From Oscillospiraceae bacterium (GTDB taxonomy: Bacteria > Bacillota > Clostridia > Oscillospirales > Ruminococcaceae): DNA of 64,000 nt. The translations under genes and the position numbers were made by a program. The notes under the pieces are model-generated. The model searched no databases and was not told where the DNA came from. It was given only the letters and a program-made list of their open reading frames with translations. Positions 15,610 to 63,445 of this stretch are shown piece after piece (position 1 is the stretch's first letter; the number at the start of each line of letters is the position of its first letter). The DNA is taken from NCBI GenBank assembly GCA_050950205.1, contig JBMNHF010000004.1:19045-83044 (forward strand), in the 5' to 3' direction.

Positions 15610-15903
15610 TTATCGTAATGAGTGGCTCGAAAAGATATGCCCGGCTTTGGGTTTTTCGGTAAGCTGATAATATATATCATAGGCTTCCGTAGCCACATCA
15701 ATGGACATTACCTGTGCTTGTCCCACCGAAAGGAGTGCATCTACTCTTGCCTTTAGGTGCGCAATCCCGGGATAGGACAGTTCGTCATAAACAGTTTTAG
15801 GAATAACGATCCTACCGGGATATAACTTAACCAATAAATTTTCATTCCCAACCCACAAAAAAGCCGAGATACAGTCGCTATCAAAAAAGAGCGAATCAGT
15901 CAA
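15610..15903 (-). pseudogene. PIN-domain protein, C-terminally truncated (97 aa)
   Basis: TTG start overlapping the ImmA-like stop; LFFDSDCISAF and IPKTVYDEL PIN motifs present; the expected GxGEA motif and C-terminal half are missing after PKAGHI. Confidence 0.65.
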
Positions 15904-16654: not shown

Positions 16655-16994
16655 GCTCACCCTCAAGCAATTGAGTCATAAAGTGGCTATTTAAAGCAAT
16701 CCTGTTTATGGCGCTAATTGCGTCCAAGTCATCTTCTCCGATTTCGCTTGCACGAAGCGCAAAGGACAGCGGTTTAACCTTCATTTCCGGCTCCATGAGT
16801 GCAGATACCCGCGTACCAAACAAGGCTGCAAGCTTATCCAGCATATCCGCCGTCAGTGCCCGTTTGCCTTTCTCGACCATAGACACAAGGCTTTGATCGA
16901 CATGAAGATAATTAGCCACATTGCTTTGTGTAAGGCCGCTATTTTCGCGCAGAGATTTTATCCTTGCTCCGATGATCTCCAGAGAGTTATTCAT
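16641..16994 (-). CDS. XRE-family HTH transcriptional regulator
   Basis: IKSLRENSGLTQSNVANYLHVDQSLVSMVEKG HTH_3 pattern. Confidence 0.9.
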   Translation of the reverse strand: MNNSLEIIGARIKSLRENSGLTQSNVANYLHVDQSLVSMVEKGKRALTADMLDKLAALFGTRVSALMEPEMKVKPLSFALRASEIGEDDLDAISAINRIALNSHFMTQLLEGEHANG

Positions 16995-17353
16995 GATAAT
17001 GCCTCCCTTCTATATTTATAGTATATGCCGCATTTGTCATATTGTCGATCAAATTTATAGCTTATTTTATGACAGTGCTTAGGCATTTATTATTCTCTGA
17101 TTATGCTTCTATACATTGATACTGAATTTAATGGGATTTTGTTTGAAACAACAAGTTCAATGTGTTCAATTTTTATAAGATATATCTTTGATGTTGTATT
17201 GTTATGGAAAGAGATAAAGAGGTGTTTTGTTTATGATTAAACGAGAGTCACATATGAGTCATATTCGTCCCTTCATAGGAAACGATCTCATTAAGATTTT
17301 AACCGGCATCCGGTGTCTTATTTTCGATGCCAGTTGCAGTCAGCGAAATTCAA

Positions 17354-17393
17354 TTGATATTCTAAAGAAATTCGTGTATAATATCTTTAGAAT
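17354..17393 (+). promoter_or_regulatory. sigmaA promoter with TA operator inverted repeat
   Basis: TTGATA(17354)-17 bp-TATAAT(17377); ATTCTAAAGA(17359-68) and TCTTTAGAAT(17384-93) form a 10-bp inverted repeat around the -10. Confidence 0.75.
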
Positions 17394-17413
17394 TGTGTAA
17401 GGAGGTAAACGCT

Positions 17414-17701
17414 ATGCCAAATATAAAGTCCAGCACTGACCTGCGGAATAACTATAATGAGATATCCACCTTCTGTCATGAAAGCCGTGAACCTGTTTTT
17501 ATCACAAAAAACGGGCAGGGAGATTTGGCGGTTATGAGCATTGAAACCTATGAGGCACTCAGCGGCAAGCTTGAACTGTATCACCTGCTTGACGAAGGAC
17601 GATCGGCCGTCAAAGCGGGTAAAAAGCGTCCACTTCAAGATGTCATGAAGGATATTAAGCGAGGCATCGCCGATGGCGAAATATTGGGTAGATGTATCTG
17701 A
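17414..17701 (+). CDS. Phd/YefM-family antitoxin
   Basis: IKSSTDLRNNYNEIS...PVFITKNGQGDLAVMSIETYE; RBS AAGGAGG. Confidence 0.92.
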   Translation: MPNIKSSTDLRNNYNEISTFCHESREPVFITKNGQGDLAVMSIETYEALSGKLELYHLLDEGRSAVKAGKKRPLQDVMKDIKRGIADGEILGRCI

Positions 17702-17987
17702 ACCAGCCGAAAACGACCTTAGGGACATTGTTCGGTATATTGCTTCTCAGCTGTCAGCTCCCATATCGGCAACTCGTATGATGGAGCTTTTTGAAGAGGC
17801 AATGCTAAGTCTGTCCGATATGCCGCAGCGCTGTCCGCTTGTTTCAGACGATCGTCTATCTCAAATGGGATACAGGAAACTAATTGTAAAAAATTACGTT
17901 GTGTTTTTTTCCATAGACGAGAAGAACAAGGTGGTTGACGTTGAAAGAATTCTGTACGGCAGACGCGACTGGATCAGATTTTTATAA
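17673..17987 (+). CDS. RelE/ParE-family toxin
   Basis: VSEPAENDLRDIVRYI...GYRKLIVKNYVVFF...VERILYGRRD; overlaps the antitoxin gene. Confidence 0.9.
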   Translation: MAKYWVDVSEPAENDLRDIVRYIASQLSAPISATRMMELFEEAMLSLSDMPQRCPLVSDDRLSQMGYRKLIVKNYVVFFSIDEKNKVVDVERILYGRRDWIRFL

Positions 17988-18058
17988 TCGATACAAGAAC
18001 AGGGTGACACTATGCAAAGTAGTCACCCTGTTTTCATGTAAATGGATGCGCCGAGCAT

Positions 18059-18622
18059 TTAGGGATTTCGATACTGATCCAGCAGCTCTATATGCTTTTT
18101 GGACTTCTGATGGATGCGGCAAGCTTCTGTTGCCATATAGTTTATCAAGCTGTCCTTTGGCACTAAATACTTGGTATAATACCATACCCCCGTTATCTTT
18201 TCTGCCTTGATCCATTCAGATACTGTGGTTTGGCAGTATCCCGTTAGCTTTGTGACATCATTTACCGTGAGGGCATCCGGAAAAGTGTGCCACTTGTTCT
18301 TAAGCATTGCCATAAACTTCTCGGAGTTGATTGCCTTCGCCGTTTGGCGCTTCGGTTTATATTTTATTCCGCTTGAAAATATCCCCGGTGGTGTCAGCAG
18401 GGTCTCAGGAGATTCTTCCAAGCGGGTAAGGTATGCAATAACGTCGGTTATTTGGATTTTAAACCTGCGGGTCTTTTTGCCGGTATCCTCGCAGGGGATA
18501 TATCCGTTCTCCAAAAGCCATGTGGCTTTTCGTTTGCTTATGCGGCAAATTCTGTAAAGCTGGTCTTGACTTATCTTCTCCGGATATTCAGCCAGAAGGT
18601 AAGAGTAGTCGGTGGCCATCAT
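18059..18622 (-). CDS. Excisionase-like protein with two HTH_17-type DNA-binding repeats
   Basis: ISQDQLYRICRISKRKATWLL and LTVNDVTKLTGYCQTTVSEWIK winged-helix patterns; adjacent to the att-like site. Confidence 0.7.
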   Translation of the reverse strand: MMATDYSYLLAEYPEKISQDQLYRICRISKRKATWLLENGYIPCEDTGKKTRRFKIQITDVIAYLTRLEESPETLLTPPGIFSSGIKYKPKRQTAKAINSEKFMAMLKNKWHTFPDALTVNDVTKLTGYCQTTVSEWIKAEKITGVWYYTKYLVPKDSLINYMATEACRIHQKSKKHIELLDQYRNP

Positions 18623-18778
18623 CGTTCCTCCCATCACATTGATCCTTAGGACAGAGAATTATGCTCTGTCTGCTGCAGGATGTTCTGTTAAAAATCAATG
18701 TCAATGGTAGGATACGCTTGGTTTTGCTTTTTCAAATCGCCGGGAAACTAAAGTATCTTAAGGTTATTTCGCCGGTTG

Positions 18779-18811
18779 TTTTTCTACGGTTTTTCTACAC
18801 TTTTTCTACAC
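18779..18811. repeat. Three tandem 11-bp repeats TTTTTCTAC(GG/AC), candidate integrase arm-binding sites
   Basis: TTTTTCTACGG TTTTTCTACAC TTTTTCTACAC, about 150 bp from the tRNA fragment. Confidence 0.65.
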
Positions 18812-18963
18812 TTTGCCCTGAAAACCGCTAAATCAGTGTGGTATGCCCCTGCGGGGAAATATCGGCGTTTGTGTCTGAAAAGCCTTTATTTATGCGGGTT
18901 TGCGGGATTTTATCTTCTCCTAAAGTTACTCTCGCAAACTCATAAGAACTTGCCTTCAAATAA

Positions 18964-19021
18964 CTCGAAATCAGGTTGTCGAGCAATCGGCACGTGAGTT
19001 CGAATCTCACCGCCTCCGCCA
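18964..19021 (+). pseudogene. 3' half of tRNA-Ser(CGA), att-like site
   Basis: CT-CGA-AA loop, TCAGG stem 3' strand, long variable arm with GCAA loop, GTGAG-TTCGAAT-CTCAC T-arm, CGCCTCC-G-CCA end. The upstream sequence forms no D-arm, acceptor 5' strand or anticodon 5' strand. Confidence 0.9.
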
Positions 19022-19028
19022 AGGTTAT

Positions 19029-19071
19029 CAGGATAGAATGGATGCATCACATGATTCTATCCTGAATTTTT
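19029..19071 (+). terminator. Terminator-like hairpin downstream of the tRNA-Ser fragment
   Basis: CAGGATAGAAT/ATTCTATCCTG 11-bp stem followed by AATTTTT. Confidence 0.6.
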
Positions 19072-19167
19072 ATTATTATGATGTGGATAACGATAGCCCA
19101 GCCGGGATAGAACGTCTTTTGAGGCTCCTTATTTCGGCATGGTAGACAGATTGTGGAGCTTGATCGA

Positions 19168-19464
19168 ATGAGAAAAATTGACGAGATCATCGCAAAGGGA
19201 AGGATTAAAGCAAAGGTACTGTTTACAGGGGGACTTTATGACAAGCGGACCGGAAAATTCATGAATTGGGGTTATGCTTATATCCGCGATCCAGATCGTA
19301 TCCTGCCCAATTATCTTCCCGACAGAATATTTATCCCTCCTAGGGACCTCAGTCGTTTAAAGGCGCAGGGGCTTCGGCGTTTGGATGATGTCCTTCTGTC
19401 TGTTAAGAAGGATTCGAAGGGAAGGCTCTATGGAGTGGATATTGAACTGATCAAAAGAGATTAG
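19168..19464 (+). CDS. Small hypothetical protein, possible stand-alone OB/cold-shock-like fold
   Basis: WGYAYIRD...RIFIPPRDL...DDVLLSV...GRLYG resembles the RNase II/R CSD pattern. Confidence 0.55.
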   Translation: MRKIDEIIAKGRIKAKVLFTGGLYDKRTGKFMNWGYAYIRDPDRILPNYLPDRIFIPPRDLSRLKAQGLRRLDDVLLSVKKDSKGRLYGVDIELIKRD

Positions 19465-19645
19465 CCAACCTGCCTGTTTTTAGTCTAATGCCATGTACTG
19501 GATTGCAGGCCATCCACTGGTTTTAATCGGACAAAGCGTTCCTTATTCCAGTGTTTTTAACCGGACAAATTGATGCAAGGGTGACAAAGTCCATGAGATT
19601 TTCAGGACGGCAGCGTCATAGAACTTTCATCGGGTGTTCAGCCAT

Positions 19646-19697
19646 AAAAATCATCTGCCTGGCAACCAATCATGGTTGCCAGGCAGATGATTTTTTG
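19646..19697. terminator. Bidirectional terminator, 22-bp perfect stem
   Basis: AAAAATCATCTGCCTGGCAACC / GGTTGCCAGGCAGATGATTTTT between convergent genes. Confidence 0.8.
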
Positions 19698-19752
19698 CTT
19701 GGTTACAAAGGCACCGACTTCGACCGGACAGTGCCCTCCAATCAACGATGGG

Positions 19753-19932
19753 TCAACTTCTTCGAACCAAAAGATGATCGCCGTTGTTTAGTTGTATCAC
19801 ATTGGCTTCAAAGGTTTCGGCCATTGTTTCCAGAAACTGCTGGCGAGCCTCGTCATTGGGCATGTGGAGTGCCAGGGGATTTCCTGTAATCACCCGCTCC
19901 GGGCAATCGGTCACATACATTACTATTTCCAT
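19753..19932 (-). CDS. Probable capping-complex subunit for YIEGIA
   Basis: 59-aa protein directly after the YIEGIA gene; ends LNNGDHLLVRR. Confidence 0.7.
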   Translation of the reverse strand: MEIVMYVTDCPERVITGNPLALHMPNDEARQQFLETMAETFEANVIQLNNGDHLLVRRS

Positions 19933-19936
19933 GCCG

Positions 19937-20830
19937 TTACCTCTTGTGGGACAGCTTGCGAACACTCTCTAAAATTGGTGTGTTGCGCACTGCAGTTAGT
20001 ATTTTTTCTTTATCCCTTATGATGGGAATAAATGCAATCACAATTCTGCCATCGGATAAGCTGCGCCTTGTAAACAACAGCTCTTTGGCGCCAAAGGAGC
20101 GAACCGCATCGTATAAAATAGCTGTTCGCTGTCCGTTGTTTTCCAGGGTAAGCCGGTGCTTTTCCGTTTTTGGAGTTGCCACCAGCGCCACCCCCTCATC
20201 CCGAAAAAACGCTTGTCGTTTGGGCAGGCCCAACATGGCGGTAATCCAGATATCGTCCACATACAAATCCGTGCCTCTCACCTCAATCTGCCCGAAATGA
20301 ATGGTGCAGATGTCGCCGATGCACTTGCCTTTGGTAAAACGCACCATAACCCAAATCAGGACAGAGCCCACCACCAAAGCATTGGCCAGGTTGAGCCAAA
20401 TGTCCTCGCTCAGAAACAGGTAAAGTGACAAAACGGTGCCCAGCGCTGTCAACAGGGAAAGGTAATTTCTGGCTTCAAAGGTTTTGGAAATGCCGTCAAT
20501 ATAGGCGCTTCCCCGGGGTGCAAATCCGGCCGAATCAATTTGCTCCAGACTTTCCTGAATCTGTTTGCGGATATCCCGAAAATGCTGAACGGCCAACATT
20601 AAAAAGGTAACCGCCGCAAAATCGTTGGTCAACAGGGAAGGGATCGCAACGGCGCCAAGGCTTGCCGCAAAAAATCCGGTGACCAGGTTGATAAAATATC
20701 CGTTGGGATAGCTGGGCACCTGCCGCAAATCGACACGCAAGGTAATCATACGGGCAATGGTTCCCATTAAAATACCCAGCAAGATTCGTATCAAGGTAAT
20801 CTGAGAAATTACATCGGGGGCCGAATCCAT
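19937..20830 (-). CDS. YIEGIA-family membrane protein
   Basis: RGSAYIDGISKTFEARNY signature; RVDLRQVPSYPNG; several TM segments. Confidence 0.88.
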   Translation of the reverse strand: MDSAPDVISQITLIRILLGILMGTIARMITLRVDLRQVPSYPNGYFINLVTGFFAASLGAVAIPSLLTNDFAAVTFLMLAVQHFRDIRKQIQESLEQIDSAGFAPRGSAYIDGISKTFEARNYLSLLTALGTVLSLYLFLSEDIWLNLANALVVGSVLIWVMVRFTKGKCIGDICTIHFGQIEVRGTDLYVDDIWITAMLGLPKRQAFFRDEGVALVATPKTEKHRLTLENNGQRTAILYDAVRSFGAKELLFTRRSLSDGRIVIAFIPIIRDKEKILTAVRNTPILESVRKLSHKR

Positions 20831-29361: not shown

Positions 29362-30135
29362 ATGGCATCACGCAAATCGGTGATAACGTTTGGTATGGTG
29401 GCCATTCCCATTGCCATGTCCACAGCCACCCGGGACAATGATATTCATTTTAATCAGCTGCACAAAGAGGATCACAGCCGCATTCGCTACAAAAAAACCT
29501 GTTCCCACTGCGGCGTGGAAATCAAGGCGGAAGACATTGTCAAGGGCTTTGAATACGACAATGACAAATATGTGGTAATCACAGACGAAGAAATTGAAAA
29601 AATCAAAACCGAAAAGGAAAAATCCATCCAGATTCTGCATTTTGCCCAACTCAACCAAATTTCCCCCGTCTATTACGACAAAACCTATCAGGCCGCCCCC
29701 CAAGCGGGAGGGGAAAAGGCCTTTGAGCTGCTGCGCGCCGCATTGATGGCGGAACAGAAAATCGCCATCGGCAAAACGGTGTTGGGCACCCGAGACACCT
29801 TAATGGCCATCATCCCCCGGGAGGACGGCATCCTCATTTCTACCATGTTCTACGCCGATGAAATTAAGGAGCTGCAAAAGCCGTATGGAAAGCCGGAGGT
29901 TTCCGAGCAGGAACTGAATATGGCAAAAATTTTGATCAATTCCATGGATACTCCCTTTGACCCCTCCCAGTATAAGGACGAGTATCAGGCCAAGCTCCGC
30001 GCCCTGATCGAAACCAAAATCTCCGGGCAGGAAGTGGTGGCTCCCGAGTCCGAAGGACCCAGCAAAGTCATCGACCTAATGGAAGCACTCAAGGCCAGCG
30101 TGGAAAAAGCGCAACAAGAAAAGGCACTGGCGTAA
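29362..30135 (+). CDS. ku: NHEJ DNA end-binding protein Ku
   Basis: ITFGMVAIPIA, RIRYKKTC, IVKGFEY, FDPSQYKDEY, VIDLMEALKAS. Confidence 0.97.
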   Translation: MASRKSVITFGMVAIPIAMSTATRDNDIHFNQLHKEDHSRIRYKKTCSHCGVEIKAEDIVKGFEYDNDKYVVITDEEIEKIKTEKEKSIQILHFAQLNQISPVYYDKTYQAAPQAGGEKAFELLRAALMAEQKIAIGKTVLGTRDTLMAIIPREDGILISTMFYADEIKELQKPYGKPEVSEQELNMAKILINSMDTPFDPSQYKDEYQAKLRALIETKISGQEVVAPESEGPSKVIDLMEALKASVEKAQQEKALA

Positions 30136-32585
30136 TGGCAGTTCGGCTGGAAGAGTATTACCAAAAGCGAAATTTTACAAAAACCCCCGAGCCGTCGGGG
30201 GAAGAAGAACCCAATCCCGAAGCAGAGCCCCAAGGGCTGCGGTTTGTGGTGCAACACCATATGGCGCGGCGAGAGCATTACGACCTTCGGCTGGAATGGA
30301 GGGGCGCACTGCTAAGCTGGGCGGTACCCAAAGGTCCGTCCTATCACACCCGGGACAAGCGCCTGGCCATTCAGGTGGAGGATCACCCTCTGGAGTACCG
30401 AAATTTTGAGGGCACCATCCCCAAGGGAGAGTATGGCGGCGGCACCGTCATGCTCTGGGACGAAGGCTATTGGGAGCCCCAAAACAATGTGGAGGAAGGG
30501 CTTCGCAGCGGCTCCCTCAAGCTGGTGCTAAAGGGGCGAAGGCTCAAGGGCAAATGGGCCCTGGTGCGGATGAAGGCAAAGGCGGGAGAATCGGCCGACA
30601 ACTGGCTTTTGCTCAAGGAAAAAGACCAATATGCCCGGGAGGATGACGGAATTTCGCAGTTTACCACCAGCATTCGCACCGGGCGCACCATGGAGGAAAT
30701 TGAAGAGGGGGCAGAAGAAAAATTCACCCGAAACCCTTTTCGGCAAACCGGCGTGCAGCTGGCCAAGCTGGTCAAAGACATCCCGCAAGGGGACGGCTGG
30801 CTCTATGAAGTAAAATACGACGGTTACCGGATGGTTGCCTACGTGGAAGGCAACGGTGTGCGGCTGATCTCCCGGGGGGGCAATGACTATACCGGGCACT
30901 TTCAACCGGTGGCGGATGCTCTGGTGGATTGGGCTGCCGGACGGGCCATGGTTCTGGACGGGGAAATGGTGGTGACCGACCCCCAAGGCAGAACGGATTT
31001 TCAGGCCCTGCAAAATTATCTGCGAAAGCCAAGGCCCCAACATCTTGCCTACATTGTCTTTGACCTTCTCGCTTTGGATGGCGAGGATTTGAGAAGCCAA
31101 CCCTTAACCCAGCGAAAAGAAACGCTGGAGGCTTTGATGCAGGGCGCCCCCAACTATCTTCACTACAGCCGGCACACCATCGGCAATGGGGAGGCAAGCT
31201 TTTGCGCGGCCTGTCAGCTGAATTTGGAAGGCATCATCGGCAAAAAAGCCGATTCCATTTATAGCGGAACCCGAAGCGGCGATTGGATTAAGCTCAAATG
31301 CGATAAACGGCAGGAATTTGTCATCGGGGGATATACCCGGCAAAAAGCCGACCGCATCATCAGTTCCCTTCTCCTTGGCATCTATCAGGACGGGGAGCTG
31401 ATTTATGCCGGCCGCGCCGGGACGGGATTGAGCCAACGGGACATGAAACAGCTGATGGAAAAATTCGAGGGCATCCAAAGGGCGCAATCACCTTTTTTGA
31501 CTGCTCCCAAGGCCAGAGCCAATGAAAGCATCACTTGGCTGGAGCCGCATCTGGTGGCGGAAGTCAAATTTGCCGAGTGGACGGAGGAACATTTGTTGCG
31601 ACAGGCAAGCTACCAAGGCTTGCGGGAGGATAAAAATCCGAAAGAGGTAAAAAAAGAAGGGGCAGATGTTCCGGCGCAGCCGGCATCATCTGCCCAAGAA
31701 CGGGAGAAGCCAATGGATACAAAGGGTGACAATATTCTGGTGGAAGGAATCAAAATCAGCAGCCCGGACAAGGTGATATTCAACCACCCCAAAATCACAA
31801 AAGCAGATGTAGCCCGCTACTACGCAAAGGTGGCAGAGCGGATGCTTCCCTATGTGAGCCATCGTATTTTGAGCATTGTGCGCTGCCCCAAGGGGGTATC
31901 CCAGTCCTGTTTTTACAAGAAGCATCCCGGCTCCAGCAGTCGGGAGGTTGTCACCATCCCCATCACCAACAGCGACGGAGAGACAGAAGATTATTTTTAT
32001 ATTGAAAGCCGGGCAGGGCTTATCTCCGAAGCCCAGATGGGCACCTTGGAATTTCACGTCTGGGGCAGCCGGGTGGAACATCTGGAGCAGCCGGATATGA
32101 TGGTATTTGACCTGGACCCGGATGAGGGAATGGCGCTGGATTTGGTTCGCCAAGGGGTAAGGGATCTCCAAAGTATTCTGGCGGAGCTTTCCCTGATTTC
32201 CTACCTCAAAACCAGCGGGGGCAAGGGATATCATGTGGTGGTGCCGTTGACACCATCGGCTTCTTGGGATGCTTTCAGTGATTTTGCCAAGGGGATTGCC
32301 CAAGTGATGGAGCAAAAATGGCCGGACCGCTACACCAGCAATATGCGAAAGAGCAAGCGCACCAACAAGATCTTTATCGACTGGGTGCGAAACGGCAGAG
32401 GGGCCACCAGCGTTGCCCCTTATTCCATTCGGGCAAGAGAAGGAGCCACGGTATCCATGCCGATTGGGTGGGATGAATTGGACACGGTTGAACCAGACGG
32501 CATTCATATGGAAGATGCACTGCTGAGAATCGGTGGGGCAGATCCCTGGGAAGGTTTTTTTACACACCAACAGCAGTTGAAATAA
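30135..32585 (+). CDS. ligD: DNA ligase D (phosphoesterase-ligase-polymerase)
   Basis: HYDLRLE/SWAVPKGP (PE), YEVKYDGYR and EGIIGK (ligase), FDLDPD and KTSGGKGYH (polymerase). Confidence 0.97.
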   Translation: MAVRLEEYYQKRNFTKTPEPSGEEEPNPEAEPQGLRFVVQHHMARREHYDLRLEWRGALLSWAVPKGPSYHTRDKRLAIQVEDHPLEYRNFEGTIPKGEYGGGTVMLWDEGYWEPQNNVEEGLRSGSLKLVLKGRRLKGKWALVRMKAKAGESADNWLLLKEKDQYAREDDGISQFTTSIRTGRTMEEIEEGAEEKFTRNPFRQTGVQLAKLVKDIPQGDGWLYEVKYDGYRMVAYVEGNGVRLISRGGNDYTGHFQPVADALVDWAAGRAMVLDGEMVVTDPQGRTDFQALQNYLRKPRPQHLAYIVFDLLALDGEDLRSQPLTQRKETLEALMQGAPNYLHYSRHTIGNGEASFCAACQLNLEGIIGKKADSIYSGTRSGDWIKLKCDKRQEFVIGGYTRQKADRIISSLLLGIYQDGELIYAGRAGTGLSQRDMKQLMEKFEGIQRAQSPFLTAPKARANESITWLEPHLVAEVKFAEWTEEHLLRQASYQGLREDKNPKEVKKEGADVPAQPASSAQEREKPMDTKGDNILVEGIKISSPDKVIFNHPKITKADVARYYAKVAERMLPYVSHRILSIVRCPKGVSQSCFYKKHPGSSSREVVTIPITNSDGETEDYFYIESRAGLISEAQMGTLEFHVWGSRVEHLEQPDMMVFDLDPDEGMALDLVRQGVRDLQSILAELSLISYLKTSGGKGYHVVVPLTPSASWDAFSDFAKGIAQVMEQKWPDRYTSNMRKSKRTNKIFIDWVRNGRGATSVAPYSIRAREGATVSMPIGWDELDTVEPDGIHMEDALLRIGGADPWEGFFTHQQQLK

Positions 32586-42285: not shown

Positions 42286-42361
42286 GGACGATTAGCTCAG
42301 CTGGTAGAGCATTCGCTTGACGTGCGAAGGGTCAGCGGTTCGAGTCCGTTATCGTCCACCA
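42286..42361 (+). tRNA. tRNA-Val(GAC)
   Basis: Complete cloverleaf, TT-GAC-GT loop, CCA encoded; TTGCAA-17-TATAAT promoter at 42223-42251. Confidence 0.97.
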
Positions 42362-44266: not shown

Positions 44267-44965
44267 ATGTTTAGAGGAAAGAAATATAGAGACAGCCAGA
44301 AGACGTTTGAGCGCACTACTCTTCACAATGTGGACGAAGCCCTTAAAATTTGCCTGGGCACCGCCAAGGCAAAATTTGACGAGACGGTGGAGCTCCATGT
44401 CCGCTTGGGTGTAGACTCCCGCCACGCCGACCAGCAGGTTCGCGGTGCAGTGGTTCTTCCCAACGGCACCGGTAAAAGCGTGCGTGTTCTTGTGTTCTGC
44501 AAGGAAGACAAGATGGAAGAAGCCAAAGCCGCAGGCGCCGAGTATGTGGGCGGCCAGGACCTGGTGGAGAAAATCCAAAAAGAGGGCTGGATGGAATTTG
44601 ACGTGGTCATCGCCTCCCCCGATATGATGGGTGTTGTGGGTCGTCTGGGTAAGATCCTCGGTCCCCGCGGACTGATGCCCAACCCCAAGGCCGGCACCGT
44701 TACGCCCGATGTGGGCCGCGCCGTCACCGAGGCCAAAGCCGGTAAGATTGAATACCGCTTGGACAAAACCAACATCATCCACTGCCCCATCGGCAAGGTT
44801 TCCTTTGGCGTAGAAAAACTGCAGGAAAACCTTTCTACCCTGATGGACGCCATCATCAAGGCTAAGCCTGCCGCAGCCAAGGGCCAGTATATCAGAAGCT
44901 GCGTGGTAGCAACCACCATGGGCCCCGGCGTCAAGATCAATCCTTCCCGTTTTACCGCTCAATAA
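44267..44965 (+). CDS. rplA: 50S ribosomal protein L1
   Basis: [24 protein letters not shown]. Confidence 0.99.
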
Positions 44966-44976
44966 TAGAATGAATC

Positions 44977-45010
44977 AAACACCGCAGACTCGTTGGTCTG
45001 CGGTGTTTTT
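44977..45010 (+). terminator. Terminator of rplKA
   Basis: AAACACCGCAGAC / GTCTGCGGTGTTT followed by T. Confidence 0.85.
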
Positions 45011-45055
45011 GTTCTGCCAAAGTCCTGCTTTTGAAGCTCCCCTGTTCTGAACGCC

Positions 45056-45083
45056 AAAAGGGCCGCATCTTCACATGCGGCCC
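45056..45083 (-). terminator. Intrinsic terminator immediately after atpA
   Basis: GGGCCGCAT/ATGCGGCCC stem followed by TTTT on the minus strand, 30 nt after the atpA stop. Confidence 0.8.
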
Positions 45084-45113
45084 AAGGTTTTCTATTTCAT
45101 TGATATTCAGCGG

Positions 45114-46622
45114 TTAGGACAGGTAATCTGTCTTAAACTCCTGAATGGCTTTGAGCAGGCGCTTTTCCAACTCGGGAGAAATATCCTGTGTCTGGCCAAT
45201 TTCATCAATCATTTCACTGTGCCAGACTCCAAAATGATCAAGGAGGTGCTGCTGGAAGTCCAGCACATCCTCCACCTTAATGTCGTCCAGACAGTGGCGG
45301 GTCATGGCAAAGAGAATGAGAATCTCGTGCTCCAGACGCATGGGGCTGTACTGGGGCTGCTTGAGAATTTCCACAATCCGCTCCCCGTGGCGCAGCCGCT
45401 CCTGGGTATCCTTGTCCAGATCGGAAGCAAACTGGGCAAAGGAAGAAAGCTCCCGGTACTGGGCCAACTCCACCCGAATGGGGGCGGCGATTTTTTTCAT
45501 AGCCGGCACCTGGGCTGCCCCTCCCACCCGGGATACCGATAGCCCCGGATTGATGGCAGGGCGGATTCCAGCGTTAAAGGATTCGGTTTCCAGATAAATC
45601 TGGCCGTCGGTAATGGAAATGACGTTGGTGGGAATGTAGGCGCTCATGTCGCCGCCTTGGGTTTCGATGATGGGCAAGGCGGTGATGGAGCCGCCTCCAT
45701 ACTGCTCGCTCAGGCGCCCCGCCCGTTCCAACAGGCGGGAGTGGAGATAAAACACATCGCCAGGGTAAGCCTCCCGGCCAGGGGGGCGGCGGAGCAGCAG
45801 GCTCATGGTGCGGTAGGCCACCGCATGCTTGGAAAGGTCATCCAGCACAATGAGAACATCCTTGCCTTGCTCCATCCAGTGCTCGGCAATTGCCATGCCG
45901 CTATAGGGCGCCAGATAGAGCATGGGAGCGTTTTCCGAAGCGGAGGCCACCACCACTGTGGTGTACCGCATGGCGTCGTATTCGGTCAGGGTGTTGACAA
46001 TGCCGGCCACGGTAGAGTTTTTTTGCCCAATGGCCACATAGACGCAGTAAACATCCTTGTCCCGCTGGTTGAGGATGGTGTCCAGCGCGATAGCGGTTTT
46101 TCCCGTTTGACGGTCCCCGATAATCAGTTGGCGCTGGCCTCTTCCAATGGGCACCATGGCGTCAATGGCCTTGATTCCCGTCAGCAGCGGGACATTCACC
46201 TTTTGCCGGGCCAAAACACCGGGAGCCACCCGCTCAATCGGGCGGAAGTTCTGCACCATCACCAGGCCCTGTTGGTCTAAGGGTTGACCCAGAGCATTGA
46301 CCACCCGGCCCAGCAAAGCATCTCCCACCGGTATTTGGGCCACCCGTCCGGTGCGGGTGACAAAGCTGCCCTCTCCCAAGCCGGCGCCGCTGCCCAAAAG
46401 CACCACGCCGATGTTGTCTTCCTCCAGGTTCATGGCAATGCCTACAGAGCCGTTTTCAAACTGGAGCAGCTCGCCGCTCATGGCGCTGCTCAGTCCGATC
46501 ACCCGCACAATGCCGTCCCCTACCTGCAGAACCCTTCCGGCCTCCTCCACATGAGGGGAAAAGAGGAAGCTGAGTACCTCGTCCTTAATAATCGAGCCGA
46601 TTGCTGTGGGGTTGAGATCCAT
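45114..46622 (-). CDS. atpA: F1 ATP synthase subunit alpha
   Basis: [37 protein letters not shown]; full length 502 aa. Confidence 0.98.
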
Positions 46623-47083
46623 TATCGCAAATACACCCCCTCATAAACGGCTTTTTTCAGATCCGAAAGTTTGCGCTTGATGGATTGATCGATCACTGTG
46701 TTGTCCACAATAATTCTAAGCCCTCCCAACAGAGAAGGATCTACGGTGGTGCGGATATCCAGCTGCTTGCGGGTCATGCGGATCAGCCGCACCTCTATAT
46801 CATAAAGCTGCTGCTCGGTAAGAGGCACTGCAGAGATCACCTCTACCGGCACTAAGTGCATTTCTTTTCGAGCCAACTCCAAAAAGATGGAGAGAACCTG
46901 TTCCACCTCTTGAGGGGGAACCGCATGCAAAAACTCCGACAGCGGAACCGGCGCCTTTTCGATGGTGGGATTTCCCTCCAACGTCAACGAAAGCGCCTGC
47001 CGGTAGATGAGAGGCAATCCCCGATCCTGTGCAAAGCTCAGCAGGGCCAGAGCATATCGGCGGGCCAGCTTTAGCTGCCTCAT
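46622..47083 (-). CDS. atpH: ATP synthase subunit delta (short, 153 aa)
   Basis: [30 protein letters not shown]. Confidence 0.9.
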
Positions 47084-47641
47084 CTAGCTCTCCTCCCATT
47101 CGGCCAGCGCTTCGGCGATGAGGCGATCCTGGGTTTCCCGGTCGATGGATACCTCTACAAATCGGCCTGCCATTAAGGCGGCAATTTCTATGATCTGACG
47201 CTTCATCTCGTCGGCCACATTTTCTTTTTCGATTTCCAGCTCGGAAAGCGCCCGTTGATAGATGTTCTCTGCCTCCCGGCGGGCGGCAAACAGCATCTGG
47301 TCAGAGCGCTCCATGGCCTTTTTGTAGGCAGCGTGGAGAATTTCTTCCCGCTCTGTTTCGATATCGGCAATCATCCGCTCGTATTGCTCCTTAAGTTCCA
47401 AAGCTTCGGCTCGGTCTTTCTGAGCAGCCTCAATCTCGGCGGCAATCCGCTCTTTGCGCTGAGCCATAAACTGTTTGACCGGCTTGTAAAGCAAAAAAGC
47501 CAGCACAGCGGTGAGCAAAAGCACGTTGACAGCCTGAACCGCCATCTGGATCAACAGATCCTTGTCCAGATTTAAAATGCTTCCAAGGGGCAGTTCAGCC
47601 CCCGCCAGAGCAACAGTGCAAATTCCTTGAAACAAACCCAT
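47084..47641 (-). CDS. atpF: F0 subunit b
   Basis: TM segment followed by LLYKPVKQFMAQRKERI and a charged coiled coil. Confidence 0.92.
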   Translation of the reverse strand: MGLFQGICTVALAGAELPLGSILNLDKDLLIQMAVQAVNVLLLTAVLAFLLYKPVKQFMAQRKERIAAEIEAAQKDRAEALELKEQYERMIADIETEREEILHAAYKKAMERSDQMLFAARREAENIYQRALSELEIEKENVADEMKRQIIEIAALMAGRFVEVSIDRETQDRLIAEALAEWEES

Positions 47642-47678
47642 TCCCCCTTTCGGTTTTCCCCCCGGTGTGGAGCAGACA

Positions 47679-47927
47679 TTAAATCAGGGGGTTGGCCATC
47701 AGAAGAATCAGGGCGATGACAAGCCCGTAAACCGAACAGGTTTCGGCCACTGCTTGACCGATCAGCATGGTGCTCAAAATAGAGCTCCGTGCCTCGGGCT
47801 GGCGCGCCACTGCTTCGGCTGCCTTGCCGGCGGCAATGCCCTGGCCCAGCCCCGAGCCCAGGCCCGACAAAGTGCAAATTCCCGCAGAAAGTGCAGACAT
47901 TCCTAAAACAAACGATCTGCCATCCAT
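47679..47927 (-). CDS. atpE: F0 subunit c, probable Na+-binding type
   Basis: GLGQG, RQPE loop, AVAETCSVY. Confidence 0.95.
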
Positions 47928-48018
47928 ATCATTTACCTCCTGTTTCTTTCAAGATGATGGGGAATGCGCTAAGCGGTCATTCCCCCAAATAGCTTTTGGC
48001 AGGTTGTCCGATGGGGTT

Positions 48019-48708
48019 TTAGTCGGAGACAACGGATTTTTCCGCAATAAAGGTCATGCTGAGTATGGTAAAGATAAAGGCCTGCAGCGAACCCGAAAAT
48101 ACATCAAAGTATGCGTGGAGAATGTCGGGCAGTACAATGCGCAGAGCCAAAGGCAGCATACCGTAAACCAAGGTCATAATGATGACTCCCCCCAGTACGT
48201 TGCCAAAAAGCCGGAAGGCCAGAGAGATGGGCTTGGAGATTTCCCCCACCAGGTTGATGGGGAGCATGACAGGGTGGGGAGAGAAGTATGCCTTAACGTA
48301 ATCCCACTTTTGAATCCGAATGCCCCGAAAGTGGATCAATCCAAAAGTCATAAGAGCCAATGCCCCCGTGGTGGCCAGATCGGCGGTGGGCTGCCGCAAT
48401 CCAAACAGGCCGCTGTAGTTGGAGAGAAGGATAAACAAAAACACGCCAAAAAAATACGGGGCAAAGGCATCGCTTCCCGGTCCCATGGTGCTGTTGGTAA
48501 AGCTCTCCATAACCTCCACAGCGCTCTCCACCGCATTTTGAAAGGCTCCAGGTACATCCCCAAAGCGGCACAACTGCACCCGGACCACCACCGCCAGAAG
48601 AATCAAAATTCCCATAATAACCCAGGTGGCAATCAGAGTGTCGGTCAAATAGACAGGGGTATCCCCTAGATGGAATAGTATTGCGTGGTAGCGGTTCGAA
48701 AAATCCAA
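48019..48708 (-). CDS. atpB: F0 subunit a
   Basis: PTADL, KPISLAFRLFGN with the essential Arg, LQAFIFTILS; TTG start after AGGAGG. Confidence 0.95.
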   Translation of the reverse strand: MDFSNRYHAILFHLGDTPVYLTDTLIATWVIMGILILLAVVVRVQLCRFGDVPGAFQNAVESAVEVMESFTNSTMGPGSDAFAPYFFGVFLFILLSNYSGLFGLRQPTADLATTGALALMTFGLIHFRGIRIQKWDYVKAYFSPHPVMLPINLVGEISKPISLAFRLFGNVLGGVIIMTLVYGMLPLALRIVLPDILHAYFDVFSGSLQAFIFTILSMTFIAEKSVVSD

Positions 48709-48743
48709 GGTTTTCCTCCTGTTAAAAAATTAGTTACCTAACT

Positions 48744-48772
48744 ATTATAGTAAAATGCTGGTTATTGCGCAA
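48744..48772 (-). promoter_or_regulatory. sigmaA promoter of the atp operon
   Basis: TTGCGC-17 bp-TATAAT on the minus strand. Confidence 0.7.
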
Positions 48773-49005: not shown

Positions 49006-50580
49006 ATGAAAAAACAATTGGCGGAACGAATCTATGCCGATTCTCCCAGGGATTTTGGCATTGTTTTGCGCAACAGCTTAAAGTTAATTGGCGTAGTGTT
49101 GGCCACCGCCCCGCTCGCTGAAGTGTTGGCGGGGCTTGGTTTGGAAACCGAAAGCCTGCTGATGCTGTATATGCTGGCCGTGGTGGTTGTTTCGGTGTTT
49201 ACCCCCAGCTACTCCTATGGAATTGTGGCGGCGGTGCTTTGCTCTTTTTCTTATGACTTCTTTATCACCGAACCTCGCTACGGTTTTTCCATCACCCTGC
49301 GCTTTCCCATCACCCTACTCACCATGCTTGCCGTTACTTTAATCATCAGCGCTTTGATTGTTCAAAACAAAAAGCAGGCCGACCTTGCCATGAAGCGGGA
49401 GCAGCGAACCAAGCTCCTTTACCAGCTGAATCAGGAGTTGCTGGCCTCCCGGGATGTTCCGGAAATTGTGGGGGTGACCCAGAAGTATATTCAGCAGCAG
49501 ATGGAGCGCTCCAATGTCTTTTTCCTCAAAGACCCCAAGGAGGGGGGAGAACCGTCCCTGGTGCTTCTGCACCCAGAGGATCAAGATCTCTTTACCGATA
49601 AGGAGGCTCTGCGCCGAGTCCACCAAATGTTTAAGGTGGGGGCAGAACAGCCGGAGGAGCTGCTGCCCAAGGACCCAAATATTCATTACGAGGCGGTGGT
49701 TTCCCACGGTAAGGTGCTGGGAGTCATCGGTCTGGATTGCCGGGAACTCCCCCTCACTCCGGGCACCCATGCCTTTTTGCATATCATTGCCTCTCGGGTG
49801 GCCTTGGCCCTTGCCCTGCGCTACTTGAGCGAGGAGCAAAACAACCTGAAAATCAGCGCCGAAAAAGAAAAGATGCGGGCCAACTTGCTGCGCTCCATTT
49901 CCCATGACCTGCGCACTCCCCTCACCAGTATTCTCGGAGCCAGCTCCGCCATTTTGGAGCAGAGGGACATGAATGAGGAAATGCGACAAAAACTGACGGG
50001 GGATATTAGGGAAAATGCCCAATGGCTCATCCGCATGGTGGAAAACATCCTCACCGTCACTAGGATTTCCAAGGAGACTACCACCGTATACAAAACCATG
50101 GAGGCGGCCGAGGAGATTGTTTCCCAAGCGGTTTCCATTGTGCGCAATCGCTTTCCCGATTGCCTTATCCACGTAAGTGTTCCCAACGAGCTGTTGATGG
50201 TTCCCATGGATGCCACCCTCATCTCCCAGGTACTGATCAACCTGCTGGAAAACGCCATCAAAAACAGCGACGAAGGAGCCCTGGTTTTGCTTACCCTAAA
50301 GAAAAAGGGAGATTTTGCACGATTTGAGGTATGCGATCACGGCAGGGGCATCCCCGAACAGCTGCTCAGCAACCTCTTTGAACTTCACTCGCCTCACTCT
50401 GAGTCGGAGGATTTGGGTGCCGATTCCTCTAAGGGATTGGGCATCGGGCTTTCCATCTGCAAGACCATCATTCAAGCCCACGGCGGAGAGATCGAGGGCT
50501 GCAATCGGGAGGAGGGTGGTGCCCGCTTTATCTTTACCCTACCCTTACACCAAATACAGGAGGAACAGCATGAATCGTAA
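49006..50580 (+). CDS. KdpD-like sensor histidine kinase (4-TM DUF4118-type + GAF-like + HisKA + HATPase; lacks the N-terminal KdpD and Usp domains)
   Basis: LRSISHDLRTPLTSILG, QVLINLLENA, DHGRGI, GLGIGLSICK. Confidence 0.9.
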   Translation: MKKQLAERIYADSPRDFGIVLRNSLKLIGVVLATAPLAEVLAGLGLETESLLMLYMLAVVVVSVFTPSYSYGIVAAVLCSFSYDFFITEPRYGFSITLRFPITLLTMLAVTLIISALIVQNKKQADLAMKREQRTKLLYQLNQELLASRDVPEIVGVTQKYIQQQMERSNVFFLKDPKEGGEPSLVLLHPEDQDLFTDKEALRRVHQMFKVGAEQPEELLPKDPNIHYEAVVSHGKVLGVIGLDCRELPLTPGTHAFLHIIASRVALALALRYLSEEQNNLKISAEKEKMRANLLRSISHDLRTPLTSILGASSAILEQRDMNEEMRQKLTGDIRENAQWLIRMVENILTVTRISKETTTVYKTMEAAEEIVSQAVSIVRNRFPDCLIHVSVPNELLMVPMDATLISQVLINLLENAIKNSDEGALVLLTLKKKGDFARFEVCDHGRGIPEQLLSNLFELHSPHSESEDLGADSSKGLGIGLSICKTIIQAHGGEIEGCNREEGGARFIFTLPLHQIQEEQHES

Positions 50581-50749
50581 CAGTCTGCAAACGGCCATTC
50601 TGATTTTGGCCATTTTATTGGGCGCCGCCTTTTTACTGCCAATCGCTTTCAACCTATTTCTGGGAACCATCTGGCTGGCCATCCGGCTCATTTTCCTTCT
50701 GGTTCTGGTCTATTTGATTGCCAAATGGTTCCGGGGCAGGCGGTCATGA
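50570..50749 (+). CDS. 59-aa hydrophobic membrane protein between kinase and regulator
   Basis: RBS AGGAGG; start overlaps the kinase stop and its stop overlaps the regulator ATG (ATGA); MNRNSLQTAILILAILLGAAFLLPIAFNLFLGTIWLAIRLIFLLVLVYLIAKWFRGRRS. Confidence 0.75.
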   Translation: MNRNSLQTAILILAILLGAAFLLPIAFNLFLGTIWLAIRLIFLLVLVYLIAKWFRGRRS

Positions 50750-51447
50750 AGCACCCCTTCACCGTGTTGGTGGTGGAGGATGAGCAGGCCATCGGCAATC
50801 TTTTGGGCGCTATTCTGGACGCCCAATACCGGGTGCTGTTTGCCTCCACCGGAGGGGAAGCTCTGGCCATGGCGGCCTCCCACACGCCCGACCTCATTTT
50901 GCTGGATCTTGGGCTGCCTGATATGGACGGCATGGATGTTTTAATCCAGCTGCGCAAGTGGTTTGATCCGCCTATTATTGTGGTATCTGCCCGGCAGAAG
51001 GAGCAGGAAAAGGTGGCGGCTCTGGATGCAGGCGCCAACGACTATGTCACCAAGCCCTTTGGCAACCGGGAGCTGTTGGCCCGAATACGCACCTCTTTGC
51101 GCCAATATGCCCGCATGCAAAATTCCCGTTCCCGGCTGGACAGTGAGTTTTCGGTGGGGGATCTTCACCTCAACTACGCAAGGCGGGAGGTGCGGATAGG
51201 GGACAAGCTGGTTCACCTCACCCCCATCGAGTACCGCATTGTGGTGTTGCTGGCCCGCAATGCGGGTATGGTGTTGACCCACGATCATATCCTCAAGGAA
51301 ATTTGGGGGCCCTTTGCCAGCGACAGTCAGCTGCTGCGGGTCAACATGGCCAATATTCGCCGCAAGATTGAACCCAATCCCGCCGATCCCCGGTACATCC
51401 TCACCGAGGTGGGGGTGGGTTACCGCATGATCGACTGCGAGCGCTAG
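50746..51447 (+). CDS. KdpE-like OmpR-family response regulator
   Basis: LLDLGLPDMDG, ALDAGANDYVTKPF, LRVNMANIRRKIEPNPADPRYILTEVGVGYR. Confidence 0.93.
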   Translation: MKHPFTVLVVEDEQAIGNLLGAILDAQYRVLFASTGGEALAMAASHTPDLILLDLGLPDMDGMDVLIQLRKWFDPPIIVVSARQKEQEKVAALDAGANDYVTKPFGNRELLARIRTSLRQYARMQNSRSRLDSEFSVGDLHLNYARREVRIGDKLVHLTPIEYRIVVLLARNAGMVLTHDHILKEIWGPFASDSQLLRVNMANIRRKIEPNPADPRYILTEVGVGYRMIDCER

Positions 51448-57470: not shown

Positions 57471-57609
57471 ATCTTGACAGTATGGAAAACAGGGACAAAC
57501 AGCTTTCCATGCAAATATTTTTTTGACCACTTTCTTCTACCCAGGATCTTGAGAAGAAAGTCAAGGCCATGCGGACAGCCGGGTCAAATGCCGATTGGCA
57601 ATTGGTTGC

Positions 57610-63167: not shown

Positions 63168-63335
63168 AGTTCGTAGGAAAATGACTGCGGTCTGCCGAAG
63201 GAGTAACACTCTCAGGCGCTCGAGGGTTCGGGCAAAGACTATGAATGGATGTGGCTCTGGAGAATCCCGTCAATCGGGTGCCGAAGGTGCAAGACGCGAT
63301 TAGCTCGCGTTAATCTCTCAGGCAAAAGGACAGAG
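63168..63335 (+). ncRNA. Tandem glycine riboswitch
   Basis: Two aptamers each with CCGAAGG...CTCTCAGG; CTCTGGAGA and CAGGCAAAAGGACAGAG in aptamer 2. Confidence 0.95.
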
Positions 63336-63445
63336 TTGGAAAAGGTATTGGGGCCTTTGGGCCCTTGTTCCTTTGTTTCTGGAGCCAAATCATGATTTGC
63401 ATGGTTTGGTTTTTTTATTTGTCGGAAGGAAGGGAATGTTGTTAC

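Follow-up and report, generated by a model that had tools for sequence, protein, structure and literature searches.

The question raised by the DNA analysed here, a 64-kb stretch referred to as the window, is why its F-type ATP synthase operon encodes only subunits a, c, b, delta and alpha, and where the genes for gamma, beta and epsilon are located. Very probably a conventional F1Fo ATP synthase gene set was divided by a chromosomal rearrangement, and the operon is its 5' half.

Gene content and signals of the atpBEFHA unit

Five consecutive ORFs on the minus strand, in the order atpB-E-F-H-A, are located within positions 48772-45056 of the window. The operon and its neighbours comprise the following features.

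48772-48744, minus strand: promoter-like site 5' of atpB (-35 TTGCGC at 48772-48767, 17-nt spacer, -10 TATAAT at 48749-48744)
48708-48019, minus strand: atpB, Fo subunit a, 229 aa (TTG start, AGGAGG ribosome-binding site)
47927-47679, minus strand: atpE, Fo subunit c, 82 aa (Pfam ATP-synt_C, 6e-19)
47641-47084, minus strand: atpF, Fo subunit b, 185 aa (Pfam ATP-synt_B, 5e-17; TIGR01144 above cutoff)
47083-46622, minus strand: atpH, F1 subunit delta, 153 aa (Pfam OSCP, 1e-23; TIGR01145, 66.9 bits vs cutoff 57.5)
46622-45114, minus strand: atpA, F1 subunit alpha, 502 aa (Pfam ATP-synt_ab, 1e-84; NCBIfam TIGR00962, 772 bits vs cutoff 484)
45083-45056, minus strand: intrinsic-terminator-like hairpin 30 nt past the atpA stop (GGGCCGCAU-GUGAAG-AUGCGGCCC, then UUUU)
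44977-45008, plus strand: terminator hairpin of the convergent secE-nusG-rplK-rplA unit (-27.3 kcal/mol)
49006-50580, plus strand: divergent histidine kinase resembling the C-terminal part of KdpD (NCBIfam KdpD 249 bits, below cutoff)
50725-51447, plus strand: response regulator beside the kinase, resembling KdpE (NCBIfam KdpE 215 bits, below cutoff)

The product of atpB matched Pfam ATP-synt_A (1e-49) and TIGR01131 (115 bits vs cutoff 102.6), and the essential Arg of subunit a is R166 (FRLFGN, codon 48213-48211). The alpha subunit carries the Walker A motif GDRQTGKT at residues 169-176 (46118-46095) and the Arg finger R365 in SVSRVGG (45530-45528). Direct reading of the sequence showed that the atpF stop codon TAG abuts the atpH start codon ATG and that the atpH TAA and the atpA ATG overlap by 1 nt. 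The unit is thus as the original prediction described it: five intact, coupled genes with their key residues, followed by a terminator 30 nt after atpA.

The atpB promoter pair was likewise read directly, at the level of sequence only; it is absent from the listing of the consensus scan, which found promoter-like sites in excess in the region upstream of atpB. The hairpin behind atpA has a 9-bp GC-rich stem (45083-45060) with a fold energy of -20.8 kcal/mol. This stem is kept in the related locus L004, where the loop differs, and locus L094 has a different GC hairpin with a T-run at the same place after atpA. The rplA gene is convergent with atpBEFHA, and the spacer between atpA and rplA is only 148 nt long, which leaves no room there for a gene remnant. 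Regarding the hairpin on the rplA side, it was kept in four of four aligned sister loci and delimits the rearrangement junction on that side. A tblastn search of the 64-kb window (E<=1e-5) found no gamma, beta or epsilon subunit, and Rfam and tRNA scans of the window gave no match related to the atp operon. An assembly artefact was ruled out, as assemblies of independent origin (JGI, Logan, ENA, NCBI) share the atpA|rplA junction.

The second locus, atpG-atpD-atpC-atpZ-atpI

A lone atpG-atpD-atpC-atpZ-atpI operon of the same species, with gamma subunit P0040, was found on six contigs, with atpA absent upstream. Beta, gamma and epsilon are therefore encoded at another locus, as had been proposed, and the search for atpG, atpD and atpC beyond the window led to the arrangement that the original prediction listed as its alternative of an unusual operon split. 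P0040 was chosen on account of its sources, which agreed with those of the proteins from the window (NCBI, JGI, Logan). The first gamma candidates, P0005 and P0003, were closest to the gamma subunit of locus L005 and proved to come from other organisms in which the operon is complete (termite-gut MAG WRLR01, JGI 3300042611). The subunits of the second locus passed the NCBIfam equivalog cutoffs (gamma 270 bits vs cutoff 194, beta 813 vs 463, epsilon 79.8 vs 67.3), and beta has the P-loop GGAGVGKT at residue 158 and the DELSE motif at 390. The locus has no genes for a, c, b, delta or alpha of its own.

The atpG locus lies downstream of a divergent [FeFe]-hydrogenase-like gene. At the sequence level, atpG is preceded by an AT-rich spacer, an extended -10 element (TGTTATAAT) and a ribosome-binding site, and a hairpin lies 3' of atpI; the candidate promoter has a weak -35 element and was missed by the consensus scan. 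At both loci the promoter and terminator candidates would presumably function as such. The atpG promoter as a copy of the atpB promoter was not supported (local score 24, vs a mean of 20.9 and a maximum of 31 for shuffled sequences; not significant).

Presence of both loci in one organism

Both halves are present, on two contigs, in the MAG GCA_050309595.1. Contig JBNRMM010000050.1 (L093), with atpBEFHA|rplA, matches the window at 99.79% identity across 13.5 kb. The lone atpGDC-ZI operon is on contig JBNRMM010000017.1 (L092), which has 99.73% identity to L087; L087 is the atpGDC contig of a JGI sample in which the locus of the window occurs too. The core set is complete in this MAG, with a, c, b, delta and alpha from the locus seen in the window and gamma, beta and epsilon from the second locus. 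The two loci also occur together in each of the JGI samples 3300062814 and 3300064082. L087 has a GC content of 0.555 and a tetranucleotide correlation with the window of 0.949; the clade loci L004, L086, L092 and L093 gave correlations of 0.936-0.956, whereas unrelated loci gave 0.20-0.64. The two loci are on different contigs in every assembly. The halves are placed in one genome on the basis of metagenome bins, shared samples and composition.

Ancestral operon and distribution of the split

In the nearest outgroup, L099, the ten genes atpBEFHAGDC-atpZ-atpI form a single operon that is divergent from a response regulator and histidine kinase pair, and L006 has the same layout. Identities to L099 were 72% (a), 88% (c), 69% (b), 68% (delta) and 85% (alpha) for the atpBEFHA half, and 68% (gamma), 91% (beta), 62% (epsilon), 59% (AtpZ) and 50% (AtpI) for the atpG half. 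At the nucleotide level the two halves were 78.5% and 78.2% identical to L099, and gamma, beta and alpha have their nearest relatives in common. The spacer between atpA and atpG in L099 is 17 nt long. The pair upstream of the complete operons of L099 (response regulator 75%, histidine kinase 57% identical) and L006 is the one found next to atpB in the window; judging from this synteny, the KdpD/KdpE-like pair already lay upstream of the atp operon in the ancestor. The single operon of L099 together with the shared pair indicates an ancestral operon that was cut between atpA and atpG. Horizontal gain of a partial operon was ruled out, since atpB has the same neighbours as in the complete operons. 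A single inversion between rplA|rplJ and atpA|atpG was not supported, as the gene upstream of atpG is the hydrogenase-like gene and not rplJ.

The atpA|rplA arrangement recurs in L004 and L093-L098, and a lone atpG is also present in L101 (gamma 89% identical) and L102 (84%). In all 79 loci from other GTDB species (alpha at most 76% identical) atpG directly follows atpA, and atpD is next, usually followed by atpC, as far as the contig reaches. The survey of genomes that had been suggested thus yielded both the recurrent junction and the unsplit state of the more distant relatives. By these comparisons the split is clade-wide and stable within a narrow Oscillospiraceae clade. It is also recent, being bracketed between a clade with at least 92% alpha identity, to which it is limited, and an outgroup at 85% in which the operon is intact.

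Selection

The dN/dS values were 0.18 for atpB (vs L004), 0.075 for atpE, 0.096 for atpF, 0.13 for atpH and 0.052 for atpA, at dS values of 0.6-0.9 for the comparisons of these five genes. Values for gamma and beta were 0.045-0.17, and the neighbouring housekeeping genes rplA, nusG and purB gave values similar to those of the atp genes. Both halves are under strong purifying selection.

Ion site of subunit c and the short delta subunit

The ion-site residues of subunit c are Q29, the conserved carboxylate E62 (47744-47742), T63, C64 and Y67, so that the Q/E/T/Y set noted earlier as resembling Na+-binding rings is present. The best matches among solved structures were the c rings of the Na+ F-ATP synthases of Acetobacterium woodii (4BEM), Fusobacterium nucleatum (3ZK1) and Ilyobacter tartaricus (1YCE), with E-values of 1e-25 to 1e-27 against single-hairpin chains. 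Q29, E62, T63 and Y67 align with the Na+ ligand set of I. tartaricus (Q32, E65, S66, T67, Y70), whereas the position of T67 is occupied by Cys64 in the window protein. On the strength of this resemblance the coupling ion may be Na+. The motif is not specific to the window locus and is shared by nearly all relatives among the Clostridia whose operons are complete.

The delta subunit is short, as was noted from its 153 residues. The OSCP profile matches the C-terminal half only (residues 59-145 vs profile positions 84-171), as do the PDB alignments; the N-terminal domain falls short of the canonical OSCP domain by about 25-30 aa, and the C-terminal domain is conserved. A single-sequence AlphaFold2 model of low confidence (pLDDT 52) gave a hint of about four N-terminal helices. 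Since L099 and L006, whose operons are complete, also encode a short delta, and the Na+-type motif likewise occurs in relatives with complete operons, neither trait is linked to the split.

Origin of the split and alternative explanations

The ancestor of the clade had one operon, atpB-E-F-H-A-G-D-C-atpZ-atpI, beside the divergent KdpD/KdpE-like pair. A chromosome break in the short atpA-atpG spacer would have left atpBEFHA at the original site, where it now converges on rplA with a hairpin terminator of its own, and atpG-atpD-atpC-atpZ-atpI would have been relocated behind its own candidate promoter and ribosome-binding site. That the atpG half was the one that moved is suggested solely by the retained synteny with the histidine kinase and response regulator. 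The products of both units would be expected to co-assemble into one ordinary enzyme, as the complementarity of the gene sets, their common origin and purifying selection suggest. Subunits a, the c ring, b2 and delta would form the membrane sector and stator, and around gamma-epsilon the alpha subunits encoded in the window would alternate with beta subunits encoded at the second locus.

The original prediction had put forward a different reading, in which atpBEFHA is a swappable ion-specificity module that borrows beta, gamma and epsilon and so builds a hybrid synthase. A second a/c/b/delta/alpha set would then compete with it for one shared gamma-beta-epsilon core. The unit does stand alone as a transcription unit, its c subunit is Na+-like, and beta, gamma and epsilon are indeed encoded elsewhere, yet the lone atpGDC-ZI locus is devoid of partner genes. 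Both halves are colinear with the single operon of L099, with proportional identities, and agree in their phylogenetic affinities; as traits of the clade, the Na+-like motif and the short delta also go with complete operons. The module therefore found no support and is very unlikely. A further view, that the split goes beyond a neutral rearrangement, is given only a slight chance: the halves might be controlled separately, with atpBEFHA under its conserved KdpD/KdpE-like neighbour and gamma-beta-epsilon-AtpZ-AtpI under a new independent promoter, or, less likely, atpBEFHA might be shared with an as yet unseen second F1 or Fo set in a true hybrid.

All of the evidence that links the two loci comes from MAGs and metagenomes, and no single contig joins them, so that the atpGDC-ZI contig could in principle be a binning or co-occurrence artefact from another organism, the species of the window then truly being without gamma, beta and epsilon. 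Such an error is most unlikely, since one MAG and two JGI samples each contain both loci at >99.7% identity, the tetranucleotide correlation is 0.95 and the halves diverge equally from L099. An organism with a lone atpGDC would, moreover, itself require atpBEFHA, and alpha is under strong purifying selection with no known role apart from beta and gamma. The position of atpGDC directly 3' of atpA in close outgroups would also fit five non-functional genes left to decay after a deletion of atpGDC. This is vanishingly improbable, because at least four species-level lineages have kept the five ORFs intact, dN/dS is as low as for rplA, nusG and purB, and atpGDC was relocated rather than lost; a recent deletion with relaxed selection, raised at the outset as a duller possibility, is rejected by the dN/dS values of 0.05-0.18. 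The rearrangement of a conventional gene set is thus the preferred explanation.

The F-ATP synthase of a Firmicute evidently tolerates alpha being encoded apart from gamma and beta, and knowledge of how the enzyme works is unchanged by the split. Before a partial atp cluster from a draft genome or MAG is interpreted as gene loss, an exotic ATPase or a hybrid enzyme, the remainder of that genome should be checked, and tools that score pathway completeness using operon context can mis-score genomes with split atp loci. The clade offers a tractable case for the rise of a new atpA terminator, with turnover between sister species, and of a new atpG promoter after an operon has been cut.

Comparison with known systems

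The chloroplast atpI/H/F/A cluster also terminates at alpha. A split atp locus is ordinary, such splits, including that between alpha and gamma, being documented in other phyla. Regarding the junctions, atp loci may be split at any of them, e.g., between alpha and gamma in Aquificae and Beggiatoa, between gamma and beta in cyanobacteria, Chlorobi and Bacteroidetes, and between b and delta in Alphaproteobacteria (PMC4154653). The split loci of other lineages are likewise complementary, non-adjacent gene sets for one enzyme, so that the alpha/gamma cut has precedent. The atp locus was unsplit in the Firmicutes sampled in the 2014 survey (PMC4154653), and a literature search found no paper describing an atpBEFHA / atpGDC split.

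The N-ATPase (atpDCQRBEFAG; PMC2881411) is an F-type relative that often has a Na+-type c subunit. It lacks delta, contains atpR and has another gene order, whereas the window unit has delta. Identity with an N-ATPase was rejected on the grounds that delta is present, that the order is atpBEFHA plus atpGDC-Z-I, and that all of the alternate F1F0 NCBIfam models scored far below cutoff (bits vs cutoff: alpha 602 vs 750, a 113 vs 302, c 55 vs 131, b 64 vs 225, beta 591 vs 752, gamma 63 vs 282).

The canonical F1Fo operon (atpIBEFHAGDC; E. coli, Bacillus, most Firmicutes) shares with the split set the eight core subunits and AtpI/AtpZ, and alpha, beta, gamma, delta, epsilon, a, b and c all gave equivalog-level NCBIfam matches. 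The order within each half is canonical, and the catalytic and coupling residues are intact. Differences from the canonical operon are the division into two unlinked transcription units, cut at atpA/atpG, the shortened N-terminal domain of delta, and the position of atpZ and atpI after atpC instead of before atpB. This last position is shared with L099, L006 and L084, in which the operon is complete.

Gene organization

The five genes at 45056-48772 (minus strand) encode F-type subunits a, c, b, delta and alpha according to Pfam and NCBIfam. No tblastn match to gamma, beta or epsilon was obtained anywhere in the 64-kb window; together with the family assignments this confirms the original prediction of an atpBEFHA unit lacking these subunits, including its exact coordinates. 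The atpH ATG directly abuts the atpF stop codon, and the atpA ATG shares one base with the atpH TAA. Functional residues are intact (a R166, c E62, alpha P-loop 169-176 and alpha R365), as had been claimed for the a-subunit Arg, the c-subunit Glu, and the P-loop and Arg finger of alpha.

Features of the atpBEFHA unit and the adjoining terminator
48772-48744, minus strand: promoter-like site read from sequence (TTGCGC 48772-48767, 17-nt spacer, TATAAT 48749-48744)
48708-48019, minus strand: atpB, subunit a; TTG start preceded by AGGAGG
47927-47679, minus strand: atpE, subunit c (Pfam and NCBIfam)
47641-47084, minus strand: atpF, subunit b (Pfam and NCBIfam)
47083-46622, minus strand: atpH, subunit delta (Pfam and NCBIfam)
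46622-45114, minus strand: atpA, subunit alpha (NCBIfam 772 bits, cutoff 484)
45083-45060, minus strand: putative terminator, 9-bp GC-rich hairpin, then TTTT (-20.8 kcal/mol; 30 nt 3' of the atpA stop)
44977-45008: terminator hairpin of the secE-nusG-rplK-rplA unit, which converges on atpA (about 50 nt beyond the atpA hairpin)

At 44267-45113, secE-nusG-rplK-rplA is not followed by rplJ-rplL, and the rplA terminator faces atpA; the normally conserved ribosomal-protein/rpoB neighbourhood thus appears to be likewise broken at the atpA-rplA junction.

Conservation and selection

The exact alpha protein with identical neighbours was recovered on independent contigs (two JGI metagenomes and one short Logan contig), and atpA converges on rplA in the near-identical strain L093 and in the sister lineages L004 and L094-L098 (alpha identity 92-93%). 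The same junction on independent contigs and in sister lineages excludes an assembly artefact. Between the window and L004, at a substantial synonymous divergence (dS 0.6-0.9), alpha had the lowest dN/dS (0.052), followed by c (0.075), b (0.096), delta (0.13) and a (0.18); the neighbouring rplA, rplK, nusG and purB gave a comparable range (0.045-0.084). This similarity excludes decay of atpBEFHA, and a recent deletion with relaxed selection, one of the duller options originally considered, is contradicted by purifying selection on all five genes (0.052-0.18). Because dN/dS is low despite substantial dS, the five genes have long been maintained as functional in the split arrangement. We know of no function of alpha without beta and gamma; with the genes kept functional, these two subunits were therefore predicted to be encoded elsewhere.

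A survey of relatives, taking a single genome for each GTDB species, gave 80 loci. In 79 of them (alpha identity at most 76%) atpG directly follows atpA, with atpD and in most cases atpC behind it up to where the contig ends; L004 is the only one with the truncated layout of the window.

The lone atpGDC operon

The missing half was searched for in the protein collection using the partial gamma of L005, the closest complete-type relative, as query. The two top-ranked gamma candidates were rejected as they belonged to complete operons of other organisms, and gamma protein P0040 was picked, as its source pattern matched that of the window proteins. P0040 is encoded in a lone operon, atpG-atpD-atpC-atpZ-atpI (AtpZ, PF09527; AtpI, PF03899), with no atpA upstream of atpG; a 349-nt AT-rich spacer and then a divergent [FeFe]-hydrogenase-like gene lie 5' of atpG. 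Its gamma, beta and epsilon exceed the NCBIfam equivalog cutoffs, gamma and beta are under purifying selection (dN/dS 0.045-0.17), and the lone atpG layout recurs in sister species (L101, gamma 89%; L102, gamma 84%).

Contigs with the lone operon occur in JGI 3300062814 and 3300064082, samples which both also hold the window's locus. MAG GCA_050309595.1 contains JBNRMM010000050.1 (atpBEFHA next to rplA, L093; 99.79% identical to the window across 13.5 kb) and JBNRMM010000017.1 (lone atpGDC-atpZ-atpI, L092; 99.73% identical to L087, the JGI contig with the lone operon), so that the suggested search for atpG, atpD and atpC elsewhere found them in the same MAG as a window-type locus. L087 has a GC content of 0.555 and a tetranucleotide correlation with the window of 0.949, compared with 0.936-0.956 for other clade loci (L004, L086, L092, L093) and 0.20-0.64 for unrelated loci. 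The MAG, sample co-occurrence, composition and outgroup colinearity, rather than a closed chromosome, indicate that the two halves probably belong to one organism.

Origin of the split and type of enzyme

The next-closest gamma (P0043, 68% identical) lies on L099, the nearest outgroup, in a single operon atpB-E-F-H-A-G-D-C-atpZ-atpI. Both halves are colinear with it, the window half at 72% (a), 88% (c), 69% (b), 68% (delta) and 85% (alpha) identity and the L087 half at 68% (gamma), 91% (beta), 62% (epsilon), 59% (AtpZ) and 50% (AtpI), with equal nucleotide identity (78.5% and 78.2%). A divergent histidine kinase/response regulator pair precedes the L099 operon and also flanks the window atpB (57% and 75% identical, respectively); L006 has the same pair and a full operon with atpZ and atpI 3' of atpC. 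In the simplest history, a single operon would have been cut inside the short atpA-atpG spacer (only 17 nt in L099), after the L099 lineage split off and before the radiation of the clade with at least 92% alpha identity; atpBEFHA would have remained next to the regulator pair while the atpGDC-atpZ-atpI portion moved to another site. Since rplJ does not adjoin atpG, the data do not fit a single inversion against the rpl cluster.

The original prediction had put forward the possibility of a swappable ion-specificity module building a hybrid enzyme. This is improbable and unsupported, given the lone atpGDC-atpZ-atpI operon and the colinearity of both halves with the single L099 operon; the duller alternative of an operon split is borne out by the lone operon in the same MAG and the intact L099 operon. 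An N-ATPase is ruled out by the presence of delta, a different gene order and scores below cutoff for all 'alternate F1F0' models (PMC2881411). Judged by its genes, atpBEFHA plus atpGDC would be an ordinary member of the F-type ATP synthase family. Splitting of atp loci has ample precedent: a prokaryotic genome survey reported it at nearly all junctions, among them alpha|gamma in Aquificae and Beggiatoa (PMC4154653). The atpBEFHA/atpGDC split adds a new and recent example, specific to one lineage.

The KdpD (C-terminal part)/KdpE-like pair is divergent from atpB (window 49006-51447, plus strand; L099 1795-4087; L006 3174-5262) and holds the same position in relatives with complete operons; since the split it has been retained by the atpBEFHA half only. 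It might regulate the atp operon, e.g., in response to cations. In the canonical operon atpZ/atpI precede atpB, as in the more distant relatives L007 and L012, whereas in this clade they lie at the 3' end after atpC (L087 12804-13460; L099 10761-11552; L006 12140-12753; L084 12913-13740). Integrase-core (rve) fragments occur about 100 nt 3' of atpI in L086 (13564-14177), at the place where the L087 contig ends (13650), and a resolvase gene lies 3' of atpI in the intact-operon outgroup L099 (11802-12362). This suggests a rearrangement-prone region, a hot spot which may be tied to the split.

Transcription signals

The hairpin stem 3' of atpA is common to the window, L093 and L004 with differing loops, and L094 has another GC hairpin with a T-run, which is consistent with selection on termination and not on a specific sequence. 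A putative extended -10 (TGTTATAAT) lies about 25 nt before the atpG ATG, together with a ribosome-binding site (AAGGGGGA); a consensus promoter scan of the region before atpG called no promoter, and sequence comparison rejected this region as a copy of the atpB promoter. The new terminator and promoter signals of both halves are inferred at the sequence level.

Subunits c and delta

Among solved structures, the Na+ rings of A. woodii, F. nucleatum and I. tartaricus are closest to the c subunit. Q29, E62, T63 and Y67 align with their Na+ ligands, and Cys (atpE codon 64, 47738-47736) takes the place of I. tartaricus T67, the residue holding the Na+-bound water. The noted likeness to Na+ rings stands, but the motif is not specific to the atpBEFHA locus: Q...ET...Y occurs in almost every relative with a complete single operon, across Lachnospiraceae, Oscillospiraceae and other Clostridia. 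The window shares the ETC variant with L004, L005, L006, L084 and L093-L098, compared with ETT or EST in most relatives. In the more distant L020 (7239-8821) and L022 (6681-8473), c-subunit genes occur three or four in tandem. Some of these copies read AVAQT, with Gln replacing the ion-binding Glu, a situation reminiscent of the mixed c-ring of Acetobacterium woodii.

Delta is indeed short (153 aa, the OSCP match confined to the C-terminal domain), but this is not linked to the split, as L099 (154 aa) and L006 have the same short delta within complete operons. Across this clade the N-terminal domain is short or variable: the window (46622-47083, minus strand), L099 and L006 have about 25-30 aa less of it. 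L005 (2936-3628) and L085 (2-538) have low-complexity insertions at the spot of shortening, and the called delta of L084 (7268-8285) has just 89 aa; the b subunit adjacent to it carries a long tail rich in Gly/Ser. The delta N-terminal region normally grips the alpha N-termini, and may be built differently in this clade. A single-sequence structure model of delta was of low confidence (pLDDT 52) and carries no weight in this reading.

Other features of the window

A low-GC stretch at about 15900-20000 (0.42-0.45; 0.54 overall) includes an IrrE-like Peptidase_M78 gene (15896-16666) together with an HTH_17 gene (18059-18637). Such pairs are characteristic of regulatory modules in prophages or integrative elements. 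At 29362-32585 (plus strand), a Ku gene lies beside full-length LigD (phosphoesterase, ligase and primase-polymerase domains), a predicted non-homologous end-joining pair.

RNA features
42286-42361, plus strand: tRNA-Val(GAC), between purB and rpmG
57524-57594, plus strand: SpF59/ldcC RNA (Rfam match, 67 bits)
63247-63343, plus strand: glycine riboswitch (Rfam match, 65 bits)
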